Both the position numbers and the translations under genes were made by a program. Of a stretch of 64,000 nucleotides of DNA, positions 16,316-49,552 are shown one piece after another (within the stretch, counting starts at the first letter, position 1; each line of letters starts with the position of its first letter). Under the pieces are notes generated by a model. That model was not told where the DNA came from and did no database searches. It worked only from the letters and a program-made list of their open reading frames with translations. Source of the DNA: Eledone cirrhosa (lineage: Eukaryota); assembly GCA_964016885.1 (NCBI GenBank), contig OZ024745.1:77438001-77502000 (forward strand). The letters run 5' to 3'.

Positions 16316-16539
16316 TTATATATATATATTTCGTTTCTGAATTTGTTTAGCAAGATTCTTTATCTGAAAACGTGTGTTGAAACCGATATTGTTATACTTT
16401 GGGAGGGTCATGTTGCCAATAAGAAACACACGCACCAGTTGCTTTCACTTCAATTTATTATAATAAATTTATAAATTTAGGAATTTATAAATTTCCGGTT
16501 GGTTGGTTGGTTCCACAACCAGATGGTTGTTTATATCTT

Positions 16540-16582
16540 GTCAAAGTTCTTTCGTCACACATTCTGTGACCTCTTCAGTGAC
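16540..16582 (-). ncRNA. Minimal type I hammerhead ribozyme (PLE-A pLTR)
   Basis: GUCA-CUGAAGA-G-GUCACA gaaug UGUGAC-GAAA-G aa C-UU-UGAC. Confidence 0.7.
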
Positions 16583-16784
16583 TGGGGGTTCTTTTCTTTG
16601 TTTTTTGTGCCTCTCCTTTGTTCTGTCCTATGCCATCTTGTTTTTGTGTGTGTGTTGTGTGCTTAGTTTGCGCATGTGTTACATCCAGGTGTCTGTGTGT
16701 GTTTATATTTGTTTATTTATTTGTTTATTTACATGTTACTGGTTGGTTGTTTGTTCTATGTGCATGTGTGTTTTCATTTTATCC

Positions 16785-17690
16785 TTAATTGTAAGTTGTG
16801 ATGTTGCTGTTCCACTCATGTTTTCTATTTAATTTTGGTTGTAATTCATTTATGTTTATTGCCTCTGTGATTTGTCTAAACATTGCGTCTTTTCTGTGTG
16901 TAGATTCTATTTTTATTTCTATGTTCTCTAATTTACCCTTATATTCTATTTTAGCATGTTGGTAGAGTACAGATGATTCTTTACTATCTTGAATGTCTCG
17001 CCAGTGTTCATTTATCCGTTCCCCTATACTACGAGCTGTCTCACCTATGTACACTATATTTTTATCTCTACATTGTCCTTCAGTACATCTTATGCTATAT
17101 ACTACATTTCTAGTTTTACAGTTAATATGGGGGCTTAATTTACAGATTATACATTTCTTATCTATACAGGGAGGTCTTTGAAAAGGGTATGTCTTGCTAA
17201 TAAGTGTTTTTATGGAGGTACCTGGTCTTTCTACTATCTTAATATTGAGTTTATGTTTATCTAGGGCCCTTCTAAATTTGTAAGCTAATTCACCTCTAGG
17301 GGTTGTATCGATGAACATTACACTCTGGTATTTATTGCTATCATACCATGAGTTTATTCTATTAGCCTTATTCCTAGTTCTTTCTATTCTATTCCAGAAT
17401 TTGCTCCTATACAAGGGGCAGGTCCCATTTGTGTCATTATTTACCATTTTTTCCCATTTGGTTCTGGCTCCTCTATACACTCTGATTTTATCTCTCTGAT
17501 TGTAACCAGAGAACTGCATACGGTGGATGAAGTGTTGTATGTGTCTCTCTAGTTCTTTGGGGTTGCACATGCGGGACACGTTTCTCATCACCCGTACCAA
17601 ATCCGCAATCAATATGTTGATTTTGGTATGGTCCGAAACAGCTGAGTTTCGGTGGATCAGATATTTGGAAGTCATGGGTTTGGCATAATG
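16785..17690 (-). pseudogene. PLE RT-thumb/linker + GIY-YIG endonuclease (truncated ORF)
   Basis: Almost identical to 28537-29427; the N-terminus of the listed 324-aa ORF is read from the inverted UTR and is spurious. Confidence 0.85.
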
Positions 17691-17852
17691 GAAATATCTG
17701 ATCCACCGAAACAAATAAATAAACGAATATAAACACACACAGACACCCAGATATAACACATGCGCAAACTAAGAACACAACACCCACACAAAACCAAGAT
17801 GGTGTAGGACAGGACAAAGGAGAGGCATAAAATACAAAGAAAAGAACCCCCA

Positions 17853-17895
17853 GTCACTGAAGAGGTCACAGAATGTGTGACGAAAGAACTTTGAC
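17853..17895 (+). ncRNA. Minimal type I hammerhead ribozyme (PLE-A inverted arm)
   Basis: Same motif as 16540-16582 on the opposite strand. Confidence 0.7.
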
Positions 17896-18262
17896 AATAT
17901 ATAAACAACCATCTGGTTGTGGAACCAACCAACCAACCGGAAATTTATAAATTCCTAAATTTATAAATTTATTATAATAAATTGAAGTGAAAGCAACTGG
18001 TGCATGTGTTTCTTATTGGCAACATGACCCTCCCAAAGTATAACAATATATATATATATATATATGTACACGTACATACATATATGCATACAGACGTACA
18101 GTAGTATGTATATATATATACATACATGCACACATATATATGTACGTATGGATTCACCGAACATTTATTATAATGCTCGGTGTGTTTGTAAACAAACATC
18201 CCGTATTAAGCCGTAGTGTCTAGCAACCATCGCTGCTTGTTTGTTCAACACTGACAAAGGGA

Positions 18263-45758: not shown

Positions 45759-45767
45759 TTATATATA

Positions 45768-47057
45768 TCATCATGTCCGCTTTTCCATGCTTGCATGGGT
45801 TGGCTGGGTCCTTCTCAGCATGTCATCTCTCCACACATCGCCTTCCTTTGTCATCGCCTCTGTGAGTCTCAGTGATTTGAGGTCAGCTCTCACAACCTCT
45901 GTCCAGGTCTCTCTTCATCTACCTCTACTGTGACTTCCTTCCACTGGCATCTCCTGGCACTTTTTCACCTAATGATTATTGTCCATATGCATCACATGTC
46001 CAAACTAATGCAATCTTCTCTCCTGCTCACCACTTCGAATTCTTCTTAAACCCAACTTTTCCTTGAATTCGTCCAAATTCTGCCTTTTTCTCATACTTAC
46101 ATTGCACATCTAACAGAGCATGGTTGCTTCATTTTTCTCCAGACAATGCATGCCCTCTGCAGTTACAGTCTATGTTTCACTACCATGACTCATCACATTT
46201 CACACATTGGAGTCATACAGTCGTCTTTTTGTATGTAGGAAAACACCTTTAGTTGTCAACAGTGGGAGTAGCTCTCTAAACTTCTTCCATCCTATCCTTA
46301 TTCTAGCTATTATGCTCTCAGAGCACCCTTTTCTGCAGCTAATTAAGTGACCTAGATAGCAGAAGCTATCAACCACTTCTATGTGTCCTTCCTGTGACTG
46401 GAATAGGTTTACATCACTGGTTAGCTTTCCCTTGGTTACCCCTGTGCATCCTCAACACACAAAGTATTTTCTTCCTCTTAGCTTACTCATTATCCCACTA
46501 CATCTACTGTGTACCCAAGATTTACATTGTGTACATCATATGGAATTTATGCCTACCCTCTTTCTACATATAGAGCAGGGTCACTTTCCTAAAGGAATCA
46601 GGATCCTATCTTCTCTCCTACTCACTAGTACTTTAGTTTTGGCTAAGTTTACTCTTAGGCCTTTTGATCTTAAATCCTGTTTCCATAGTTGGAACTTATT
46701 TTCTAGGTCTTTAATGGATGCGGCTATAAAGATCAGATCATAGAGAAGTTCCCATGGGCAACCGGTCTTTAACTCTTCTGTTATAGCCTGGAGGACTATA
46801 ATAAATAAGAACCGAACCTTGATGAACTCCTACTTGTACCTTGAATTCCTCACTAAACTCATTTCCTACTCTTACTTTACTGACAGCTCTTCTGTACAAG
46901 ACTTGCACTGCTCTCACCAATGATTCTTCTACACCTAATTTCCTTAAAGACCATCAGATAATAGATCGGCGTACTCTGGTCAACGAAACCTAGGTATAGT
47001 GGGTTATTTTTGGCTAAGAACTTCTCTTGTAGTTGCCTCACTAAAAAGAGGGTGTCT
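45768..47057 (-). mobile_element. Older RTE LINE (family A-like) 3' part
   Basis: LFLVRQLQEKFLAK..GVHQGSV..FPCSICRKRVGINSI..WVHSRC; many stops. Confidence 0.9.
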
Positions 47058-47302
47058 GTGTGTATGTGTGTGTATATATATATATATATATATATATATA
47101 TATATATATATTCAGGTTTGAGGTTTACCACTGTATAGAGCTGGTCTATTCCGTATGGTCAATCGTAATGCAATAATATAGAGAGTACTCGACGTAAGGC
47201 AGTTCAACCGTCTTTGTTTTTGTAGTTGGTGGTGCTATTACGGAGTTAAATATAATGAAATGACAGGAGGCTGGATTTGTGTAAATCCTTGAAAGGTTTA
47301 TT

Positions 47303-47360
47303 ATACTATAATCATTTCAATGACCGGGTTCCGTATGAATCCGGTGATATCATCAGGTAT
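47303..47360 (-). ncRNA. Type I hammerhead ribozyme (left arm)
   Basis: AUAC-CUGAUGA-stem II (ACCGG/CCGGU)-GAAA-UGAUUA-UA-GUAU. Confidence 0.7.
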
Positions 47361-48924
47361 TCGAAATATAATACGTGAATGTAATAGATAAAATCCATGG
47401 GGCTGAAAATCGAGGGCCCGAGGGCGACCGCTATTCTGTTCCTTCAACCTCAGCCGGTCGCCCTCGAGTGACGTGGCTAAAGTTTATAGTATGCTACTAC
47501 CGGTCAGATAAAGGAAAACAGAAAGGGATGGGAACATAAGTTAGCGTCAATCTCATGACACAAGGTAAAAGAAAGAAAGAAAGGAAGGAGAGAGAAGAAG
47601 GGGGAAGAAAGAAGAAGAGAAGCCAGGGTTAATGTCAGCTAAAAGAAGAAATGCAACTACTATCGGTCAGATATAGGCAAGCAAGAGGGGGAAGGAAGAT
47701 AAGTCTGCGGGAGGAAGGCAAGAAGAGGGGAGAAGAGAAGGAAGAGAAGAGAGAAGTAGAAAAGTAAGGGTTGATGGCTACAAGAAGGAAGATAGAAAGA
47801 AAGAGGAAGAAAGGTCGATATTAATGTCAGACACAGTCAGGCCAGGAGTGGCGCGAGAAAATTTTCACAGGGACCCGCATCTTAGCAGAGGTGAATATAT
47901 TGGGAGTCAGTGTGTTACAGTGTTTAGACTTCTAGGATGAAGTTAAAAAATTAATAATCAATATTCAATATCAAAGAGATTAGAAAATTTAAAGTTCAAC
48001 AGTTTAACATTTTCAGGTTGATATATCTAATAGTTCCGATGTGTTCTGTAATTTAAAGGTACTATGTGGCGGTTATAACACCGGCCGCGCCCCGGGCCCC
48101 ATGGCGAATTAAGCTACGCCGAGTATTTTCATTTACCGAAAGAAGTGGAAATATGAAAATACTCGGCGTAGCTTAATTCGCCATGGGGCCCGGGGCGCGG
48201 CTGGTGTTTTAACCGCCACATAGTACCTTTAAATTACAGAACAAATCGGAACTATTAGATATATCAACCTGAAAATGTTAAACTGTTGAACTTTAAATTT
48301 TCTAATCTCTTTGATATTGAATATTGATTATTAATTTTTTAACTTCATCCTAGAAGTCTAAACACTGTAACACACTGACTCCCAATATATTCACCTCTGC
48401 TAAGATGCGGGTCCCTGTGAAAATTTTCTCGCGCCACTCCTGGCCTGACTGTGTCTGACATTAATATCGACCTTTCTTCCTCTTTCTTTCTATCTTCCTT
48501 CTTGTAGCCATCAACCCTTACTTTTCTACTTCTCTCTTCTCTTCCTTCTCTTCTCCCCTCTTCTTGCCTTCCTCCCGCAGACTTATCTTCCTTCCCCCTC
48601 TTGCTTGCCTATATCTGACCGATAGTAGTTGCATTTGTTCTTTTAGCTGACATTAACCCTGGCTTCTCTTCTTCTTTCTTCCCCCTTCTTCTCTCTCCTT
48701 CCTTTCTTTCTTTCTTTTACCTTGTGTCATGAGATTGACGCTAACTTATGTTCCCATCCCTTTCTGTTTTCCTTTATCTGACCGGTAGTAGCATACTATA
48801 AACTTTAGCCACGTCACTCGAGGGCGACCGGCTGAGGTTGAAGGAACAGAGTAGCGGTCGCCCTCGGGCCCTCGATTTTCAGCCCCATGGATTTTATCTA
48901 TTACATTCACGTATTATATTTCGA

Positions 48925-48982
48925 ATACCTGATGATATCACCGGATTCATACGAAACCCGGTCATTGAAATGATCATAGTAT
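48925..48982 (+). ncRNA. Type I hammerhead ribozyme (right arm)
   Basis: AUAC-CUGAUGA-..ACCGG..CCGGU..-GAAA-UGAUCA-UA-GUAU; palindromic stem III AUGAUCAU; immediately followed by AATAAA. Confidence 0.78.
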
Positions 48983-49552
48983 AATAAACCTTTCAAGGAT
49001 TTACACAAATCCAGCCTCCTGTCATTTCATTATAATATATATATATATATATATATATATATATAAACAAATATTGCATCCAAAGTTTTAATTTTGAAGT
49101 ACTGAGGGATTTTGAATTTCATAGAAAATATAGCATACAGACATAACATGGAATTACAGTTGATTGCTTTAAATTACTTAGAAAAATTAGGTAAAGACCT
49201 GTTATGGACAGAAATACGTTATGAGCAGCCACGACGAGGAATCAAATCTCATATATTTATATATATATAGCCACTGGAATTAGTGAAACTCGAGTACTGG
49301 TCAGTTGAAATATATATATATTACATACAGACACACGCATTCATATACATACATATAAAGCATAGGCATTCTTGTGAAGCATTCTTCTCTACCACATGGT
49401 TTTTTAGTCAGAGCTCACTCTATAGCTTCTTGGATTGACCAATGTCATGTGAGTAAAATTGGTTGATGAAAATTGTGCAGAAGCCCAGCATCTATATGTG
49501 AGTGTGTGTCTGTTTGTCACTGCATATGTTTTTGCATTATATTGACACTGAT

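Follow-up and report, generated by a model that had tools for sequence, protein, structure and literature searches.

A stretch of 64,000 nucleotides of the Eledone cirrhosa genome (NCBI GenBank assembly GCA_964016885.1, contig OZ024745.1, positions 77,438,001 to 77,502,000; hereafter the window, whose own numbering is used throughout) contains at 16329-49034 a hotspot of TA repeats packed with lopsided head-to-head insertions and hammerhead ribozyme motifs. With modest confidence, we consider these inserts to be the 5'-truncated ends of several families of Penelope-like elements (PLEs), whose asymmetrical inverted shape would arise when the element protein sits on two RNA hairpins and one cDNA is made on each nicked strand. 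The repeated hairpin that defines the ends is a new feature of a known clade, the Hydra clade. Otherwise the collection is a dense example of known PLE debris, and the initial annotation overstated the case in calling it a hidden system. Actually, the inverted 5'-truncated copy, a tail of 30-40 bp, the (TA)n preference and the hammerheads of Hydra elements were described by Craig et al. 2021 (PMC8557442), minimal PLE hammerheads of low activity and dual motifs on opposite strands 100-700 bp apart by Cervera and de la Pena 2014 (PMC4209133), and self-priming was proposed by Arkhipova et al. 2013 (PMC3846280).

The range 16329-49034 holds 2700 nt of TA spread over 153 tracts, while the other 31 kb of this AT-rich window have 259 nt in 22. 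Stacked in these tracts are pieces of RTE-type long interspersed elements (LINEs), repeats resembling short interspersed elements (SINEs), one Tc1-like element and 17 PLE-like modules that occupy 13.1 of the 32.7 kb. Self-alignment revealed 13 head-to-head insertions of 11 families: two each of families A and B, one each of C (37072) and D (21239), and those starting at 19868, 26479, 36478, 36786, 38293, 38366 and 47112. All 13 lie at TA runs and show the 5' truncation, the inverted 5' copy and the one-sided extra sequence of endonuclease-positive PLEs; none has the symmetrical terminal inverted repeats, reaching both ends, of a miniature inverted-repeat transposable element (MITE). The tail ranges from 34 to 139 nt (56 in A, 86 in B, 61 in C, 62 in D, 44 in 19868, 77 in 36478, 135 in 36786, 45 in 38366, 139 in 47112, 34 in 38293 and 37 in 26479). 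The centre is 12-32 nt long in seven insertions, five have spacers of 109-2164 nt, and in the second copy of family B (B2) the arms do not overlap. Wherever an inverted insertion carries a hammerhead, its sense strand faces outward. The design first noticed, with outward 3' ends, one arm ending abruptly at TA and a tail on the other, was confirmed, but the observation as a whole only in part. The roughly a dozen unrelated families said to share it come down to 11, of which C and D are related (72% alike over 117 nt, with the tail boundary in common), and three hammerhead modules (the tandem at 18063-18850, 33193 and 36022) have no inverted arm. Four inverted modules (19868, 36478, 36786 and 38293) are without a hammerhead. 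The tail-less end falls on at least three alternating TA bases in 8 of 10 families, compared to 6.6% of 991 background positions (binomial p ~1e-8); this tally has one row per independent family, with C and D merged, 26479 omitted and module 5022, from outside the range, added. Since modules were picked by self-inverted alignment, any symmetrical ones may have been discarded as MITEs.

Families A and B, judged by their translations, are truncated coding PLEs, and B belongs to the Hydra clade. In both, a reverse transcriptase (RT) is followed by a C-terminal GIY-YIG endonuclease in one open reading frame (ORF), and both show the same inverted design, as the initial annotation had seen; the other inserts of the window (orphans hereafter) are too short or non-coding. 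The first copy of family B, B1 (21982-24290, minus strand), is truncated and frameshifted, with RT, thumb and GIY-YIG at 24280-23200, a variant hammerhead with a CAGAAGA core at 22137, the 86-nt tail and an inverted arm of only 27 nt (24261-24287). B2 (24899-24978) joins 35 nt of the B tail end head-to-head with a 49-nt tail-less piece through a 4-nt overlap, the two pieces covering non-overlapping regions of the element. The motifs that mark the Hydra clade in the supplementary alignment of PMC8557442 are present in B1, whose translation, read by eye against section 11 of that paper, contains the CxCX5C linker and no CCHH in the endonuclease. It is truncated before the N-terminal DKT/RWK motifs; the full-length relative P0046 has ADKT. 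A hidden Markov model (HMM) of the relatives matches B1 with an independent E of 3.6e-49. A full HMMER search related family B to 4038 proteins, whereas a word-based protein search with the endonuclease piece found none among 191 candidates. TA runs, the Hydra-clade target, flank B1, B2 and the hairpin-bearing orphans described below.

Family A is represented by A1 (16330-18049, minus strand; RT thumb and GIY-YIG at 16785-17700 on the long arm, a 21-nt snap-back patch at 17692-17712, inverted tail-less arm at 17709-18049) and A2 (27166-29881, plus strand; RT-GIY-YIG at 27719-29427, inverted tail-less arm at 27166-27729). The 56-nt tail of A2 (29826-29881) sits within an ATG-open frame, like that of A. 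vaga Pen2a (PMC3846280). The hammerheads are at 16535-16586 (minus; minimal type I with a bulged G, G10.1-C11.1 and a 2-bp helix III) and 17849-17900 (plus) in A1, and at 27358 (minus) and 29633 (plus) in A2. The family matches 17 RT-GIY-YIG proteins, the best being a hypothetical protein of Octopus vulgaris at 66%. It has the CX2-5CxxC linker and the CCHH of Neptune and Nematis (translation of A2 read by eye), but not their lack of a long insertion between RT motifs A and B, since 134-135 residues separate these motifs in four A relatives against 62 in the Hydra relative P0046; for this reason its clade was left unplaced. Searching the PMC8557442 supplement with four family A motifs gave no relevant match. 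The relatives of A (27719-29427; P0001-P0014) combine an insertion of some 70 residues, located between RT motifs A and B, with an endonuclease at the C-terminus, and may represent a so far undescribed lineage of PLEs that is frequent in marine samples. None of them with flanks was found in viral_contigs or genome_contigs, no Hydra relative in viral_contigs, and no RNA data set is among those listed as carrying family A. In public runs the depth over 27735-29881 climbs about 20-fold toward the 3' end, and the TA-flanked end at 29825 recurs in 148 and 152 contigs of one sample and in 2 of another organism. Among the joints listed in these runs there were four on opposite strands, with one read start each, and one in tandem.

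The four A arms differ mostly in an AC-rich stretch of 140 nt before the hammerhead (29486-29625 and its copies), with 25 of the 30 variable sites (p 2.5e-6). Six A-to-G changes of the A2 short arm cluster there, for which A-to-I editing was considered and rejected: the alleles recur in other copies, and the variants listed include 37 A>G and 45 T>C, without excess on the sense strand.

The evidence for the end-defining hairpin comes mainly from relatives of B. An alignment of 13 of them fetched 90 loci, 78 in metagenome contigs and 12 in contigs filed under prokaryote assemblies (L079-L090), the latter probably contamination from host animals. A sense type I hammerhead with a stem III of 3-5 bp lies 79-519 nt past the ORF in 47 of the 90, its domain II flanked by UU in 23, GC in 20, AA in 2, CA in 1 and AU in 1. 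The helices covary, with 138 two-sided changes, a number reached in none of 500 shuffles. Two loci, L074 and L088, are coding elements with an inverted arm and a tail as in the window. Between the hammerhead and the start of the ORF these relatives carry a bulged hairpin, GCUC-Y...R-UH-GAGC-ACU. Where a hammerhead copy is succeeded by 230 nt or more free of TA runs, as in 35 cases, the hairpin is present at least once in 30 and twice in 21, with 0.4 and 0 in doublet shuffles and 2 on the antisense strand; the spacing of the two is 55-74 nt. Its pair 5 is CG in 34 and UA in 17 of 51 instances and never broken (the descriptor requires a pair here), the next two pairs vary freely, and 61 two-sided changes were counted, as in none of 500 shuffles.

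This hairpin marks where the copies end. Of the copies that terminate at TA, those with a single hairpin stop 52-68 nt downstream of it in 10 of 12 cases, and those without it stop 68-86 nt past the hammerhead in 11 of 14, where the first hairpin would start. When loci with a 3' end alignable to the 5' copy of the same locus were tallied without selection, 15 of 28 rows (15 of 23 after discounting five self-overlaps) ended 0-6 nt before a hairpin, against about 2.5 expected; comparisons between sister loci at L042, L018, L032 and L019 were left uncounted, as they ended through divergence or at a non-TA end. Both copies of the hairpin serve as ends on non-inverted coding elements, and the inverted arms of L088 and L074 stop 6 and 3 nt before it.

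The same arrangement is found in the window, where the hairpin begins 2, 1, 0, 5, 6 and 4 nt past the tail-less end of B, C, D, 36478, 36786 and 47112. The B hairpin (22017-22065, minus; E 0.036) belongs to B1. That of D (21277-21300, minus; E 0.0013) has a GUUC/GAGC form and lies in the 62-nt tail of the insert at 21239-21546 (minus), with hammerheads at 21399 (minus) and 21448 (plus) and a 32-nt duplicated junction piece. In C (37072-37835, plus; hammerheads at 37158, minus and complete, and 37688, plus and damaged; spacer 285 nt) it has one mismatch (37776-37799; E 0.4). The short insert 36478-36673 (plus, 12-nt centre) has it at 36602-36628 (E 0.0021), and the young palindrome 47112-49034, with seven mismatches in 882 nt, a 20-nt centre and hammerheads at 47356 (minus) and 48929 (plus), at 47246-47184 (minus; E 0.044). 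These last two are of the compensatory ACUC/GAGU form, which is found in three of the six. In the short insert 36786-37028 (minus, 14-nt centre) the hairpin (36914-36829) has a 67-nt loop. A covariance model trained on outside loci only places D, 36478, B1, 47112 and C among its top 8 matches in the window (E 0.0013-0.4) and misses 36786, found by the descriptor only; the remaining three of the eight are unexplained. One of these is the third-ranked match (16238-16283, minus; E 0.023), left of A1, without the 2-nt bulge and in no recognised module. As B and five orphans share a hairpin 0-6 nt beyond the tail-less end, these five are tied to coding PLEs. A PLE origin is thus supported for C, D, 36478, 36786 and 47112 by the Hydra-clade tail hairpin and, where present, the hammerhead type, in agreement with the origin initially proposed for the orphans, that of A and B following from their ORFs.

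No description of the twin hairpin was found in the literature searched, with subscription papers, Repbase notes and the supplement figures of PMC11167929 outside reach. Rfam gave no family for it in five loci at E up to 5, apart from two unrelated weak matches. The loose descriptor also caught the heads of tRNA-like SINEs in the window, and the GCUC/GAGC stem with the AC after it (21588-21660, 33040-33110; L001-L090) presumably resembles the D-stem of tRNAs.

The hammerheads of the window, to judge from their predicted folds, are mostly real. A strict type I descriptor gave seven matches, where 30 local dinucleotide shuffles averaged 0.03, and a relaxed one 11 in the range, against 0.5 in 20 shuffles (maximum 2), with a single match in the outer 31 kb. 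Rfam at gathering thresholds gave no hit in the window, so the scan suggested with the initial annotation was positive with descriptors and empty with Rfam. The relaxed matches include 10 of the 16 sites listed there, which had been placed no more than about 60 nt off the cores, plus an extra one at 22137. The 16 sites belong to nine families. Both core boxes and three helices are present in 11 (cores 16578, 17857, 18716, 21399, 21448, 27358, 29633, 36377, 37158, 47356 and 48929), three are damaged by one change (18298 in stem II, read by eye, 33202 in the GAAA box and 37688 in stem III), and two are doubtful, with a helix I of just 2 bp (26648 and 38519). The palindromic stems III had been quoted correctly, and domain II does vary, from 13 to 96 nt. 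By family, a sense type I hammerhead in the pseudo-long terminal repeat (pLTR) is complete in A, C, D, 47112, 36022 and 18063, variant in B, doubtful in 26479 and 38366 and absent from four short inserts. C, D and 47112 have the canonical core with stems of the Hydra type, and the orphan hammerheads match those of the relatives in the unpaired 10.1/11.1 options and the 3-5 bp stem III. In a search with a model built from the hammerheads of 43 relatives, window sites fill 8 of the top 9 places at E from 5e-6 to 0.18, with E <0.01 for three only.

In two copies of the family B hammerhead (22088-22145 and 39138-39242, both minus) CUGA is replaced by CAGA, a core seen in none of the 47 ORF-linked relatives; the second copy is a diverged relative of the B 3' end, 78% alike, and by eye the long stem III shows compensatory changes. 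Long domains II, of 96 (33202-33316), 51 (36308-36377) and 36 nt (21344-21399), also contrast with the 11-31 nt of the 47 Hydra relatives. A derivation of these from octopus Naiads found no support, six short stem III words giving one match, in the Hydra consensus file. Nor are unpaired 10.1/11.1 positions new, as U.U is already in Hydra elements and in Perreault et al. 2011 (PMC3088659), who describe U10.1-U11.1 and U4C variants. The hammerheads would be passengers of the pLTR and their cleavage is putative; in PLEs activity is low or protein-assisted (PMC4209133, PMC11167929), and in vitro the hammerhead was dispensable for insertion (PMC11167929).

How could two hairpins give one tail and two opposite arms? 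The protein would dock on each hairpin with its RT positioned just 5' of it, so that cDNA synthesis would start a few bases 5' of the hairpin on the nicked TA strand, a few TA bases aiding the pairing with the target. Synthesis from the distal site would yield the tailed arm and from the proximal site the tail-less arm, the tail being the distance between the two hairpins. The two cDNA ends would be joined by microhomology with occasional snap-back patches, and both cDNAs running off the same broken RNA end would yield a near-perfect palindrome. Such twin priming would account for the single tail per insertion, the short centres (both cDNAs halt where the same RNA ends), the long spacers (one stops early) and B2. 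Furthermore, tail-less ends are found on non-inverted coding copies (L003, L029, L041, L060, L071 and L077), indicating that this site works as a first-strand start. A bolder version, which we offer tentatively, is that in the Hydra clade the two-copy docking signal programs a dimeric RT-endonuclease to copy one RNA into two cDNAs, one on each of the opposite target strands, with the distance between the signal copies setting the PLE tail and the whole building head-to-head insertions.

The closest competitor is a fold-back, akin to the self-priming hypothesis of PMC3846280, in which a single cDNA begins at the end of the tail, folds back at its 3' end and is extended along its own sequence as far as the first hairpin, where it is joined to the TA target. 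We regard it as rather unlikely. The 12-32 nt centres of 7 of the 13 insertions are as it predicts and to that extent weigh against twin priming, which explains them equally well. It would also fit the imperfect pairing within the 47112 centre, the few differences between the arms of 47112 (7 of 882 positions) and 19868 (1 of 89) and the 21-nt snap-back in A1, and a hairpin with protein bound to it could serve a polymerase as a stop no less than as a start. As the general mechanism put forward in the initial annotation, however, it is supported only in part: the inverted piece of B2 copies a region missing from its long arm, so that an extra deletion is needed, the tail-less ends on non-inverted coding copies are left out, 26479 has its tail on the inverted and not the main arm, and the A2 arms come from different subfamilies, alleles present in 22-24 contigs being carried by the short arm and absent from the long one. 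This last point would favour two separate ribonucleoproteins, each with its own RNA, acting at one two-strand cut with host end-joining fusing the cDNAs. So would the divergence of the arms within A1 (4.1%) and A2 (5.0%), larger than the 1.3% between the ORFs of the long arms, and the 4-nt microhomologies at the A1 and B2 junctions. We nevertheless hold this to be improbable, because tail/tail and tail-less/tail-less pairs would be expected and all 13 insertions are one-tailed (although symmetrical cases such as 4925-5001 may have been classed as MITEs), and because frequent 12-32 nt centres are hard to obtain from two unrelated truncations. That the orphans are MITEs, or palindromes born by replication in unstable TA repeats, with hammerheads by chance, seems very improbable to us. 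There is a genuine Tc1-like element with terminal inverted repeats among the inserts, Rfam is silent and no orphan arm reaches an ORF, but the arms are asymmetrical, the hammerheads are far above shuffles and of the Hydra pLTR type, and in five orphans the Hydra tail hairpin is found where expected. Family A also argues against it by its 20-fold depth gradient and its shared TA-flanked end.

Several observations weigh against twin priming itself. If one RNA served both strands the arms should be identical, and those of A1 and A2 are not, with rare alleles shared in a mosaic (two are common to A1-short and A2-long); this points to two templates or later gene conversion in family A, and counts against a pure fold-back and a strict one-RNA model alike. 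Gene conversion could also explain the mosaic. The hairpin was not found in five of the 11 inverted families (A, 19868, 26479, 38293 and 38366), so the model covers these by analogy only, and 8 of the 23 valid ends lie more than 6 nt from a called hairpin. The loose descriptor is not enriched window-wide (8 matches against 4-12 in shuffles), only the position being informative, and it is from this position that we infer the docking role. The outer four pairs are nearly fixed, with 1 change in 51 instances of the outside set; it may thus be their sequence that is recognised, and the hairpin might function at the level of cDNA and not of RNA. The 90 loci include sister copies, so the counts are not independent and the 35 copies are not 35 families. 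For the orphans, arm searches did not reach an RT/GIY-YIG ORF inside the window, and tblastn and three HMMs found no PLE protein remnants in their arms. Finally, the start site used by the element of PMC11167929 is not homologous to its target, unlike the TA microhomology here.

This last element, a Poseidon-clade PLE studied in vitro by Frangieh et al. 2024 (PMC11167929), is otherwise the nearest biochemical parallel, with two RT start sites that bound the tail, a start near a stem-loop, cutting and extension of both target strands and a predicted dimer. Like the inserts described here, the canonical endonuclease-positive PLE units of PMC8557442 and PMC3846280 are 5'-truncated, with an inverted 5'-truncated copy, a one-sided tail at the start of the next unit, a hammerhead near the 3' end and palindromes at the inverted junction. 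The tails here are longer, up to 139 nt against 30-40 bp, and many families are stacked in 33 kb. Those descriptions, in their accessible parts, name no cis signal fixing the two ends. The Hydra clade (PMC8557442 section 11 and File S2; it includes Hydra-1_Obim from octopus) shares with our sequences the CxCX5C linker, the absence of CCHH, the (TA)n target and hammerheads with U.U at 10.1/11.1 and a 3-4 bp palindromic stem III. It differs in the CAGA core of family B and in domain II, 11-31 nt against 36-96 nt in some orphans. The repeated tail hairpin is not mentioned in the accessible text of PMC8557442, yet the deposited consensus of Hydra-2_Amil shows it on inspection by eye. With the minimal PLE hammerheads of PMC4209133 family A shares a bulged base before G10.1-C11.1 and the tiny palindromic helix III, and the dual motifs on opposite strands are also alike. 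The 418-nt tandem at 18063-18850 (minus strand, no inverted arm) looks like the non-LTR (long terminal repeat) retrozymes of bioRxiv 10.64898/2026.07.22.740005, with about 1.9 non-coding units and cores at 18298 (stem II damaged) and 18716; the 314-nt non-coding unit of 26479-26915 (minus), with 55 nt of terminal redundancy and its 37-nt tail on the inverted arm, amounts to 1.2 units with one doubtful motif (26648). Both minimal hammerheads and retrozymes differ from the present set in that 6 of the 11 complete motifs here are without G10.1-C11.1 and that the inverted pairs lie on opposite strands, where no dimer is possible in one transcript.

The origin of the inverted insertions and one-sided tail of PLEs was flagged as open by PMC8557442 and PMC11167929. 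A conserved short hairpin at both alternative ends offers two mutable handles, and moving it should move the start site and change the tail length. If our reading is true, it defines a cis signal of a telomerase-related RT, gives a marker that assigns ORF-less debris to a PLE clade, and could guide RNA-templated insertion with these proteins. The density of hairpins and hammerheads alone is that of ordinary PLE debris, and nothing here shows a role for the host.

Among the remaining inserts, 19868-20108 (19-nt centre, 44-nt tail) had no detectable hammerhead or hairpin motif, the tiny 38293-38362 (34-nt tail) has no hammerhead, and 38366-38711 (45-nt tail) has a 109-nt spacer with a partial hammerhead (core 38519, minus). 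Two single truncated ends without an inverted arm lie at 33193-33503 (plus), with a damaged hammerhead and a branched domain II of 96 nt, and at 36022-36433 (minus), with a complete hammerhead (core 36377) and a domain II of 51 nt. Small TA-flanked modules at 27003-27105, 37853-38283, 38742-38814 and 49270-49309 lack both an inverted arm and a hammerhead and match nothing else in the window, and ARAGORN found no tRNAs. Hairpin inserts also occur beyond the range described: 4925-5001 is symmetrical, 5022-5231 has a 51-nt tail, and 15601-15702 is a fold-back with duplicated pieces. The element at 31919-32475, outside the design of the PLE inserts, is internally deleted, with symmetrical terminal repeats and the remnant of a transposase N-terminus on the minus strand, and we take it to be Tc1/mariner-like. 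A TA tract of about 1.1 kb at 20105-21238 is regularly interrupted, and RTE-like LINE fragments with short-repeat 3' ends (25037-26420, 29940-31559, 33804-34933 and 42737-47072) share the TA tracts of the hotspot.

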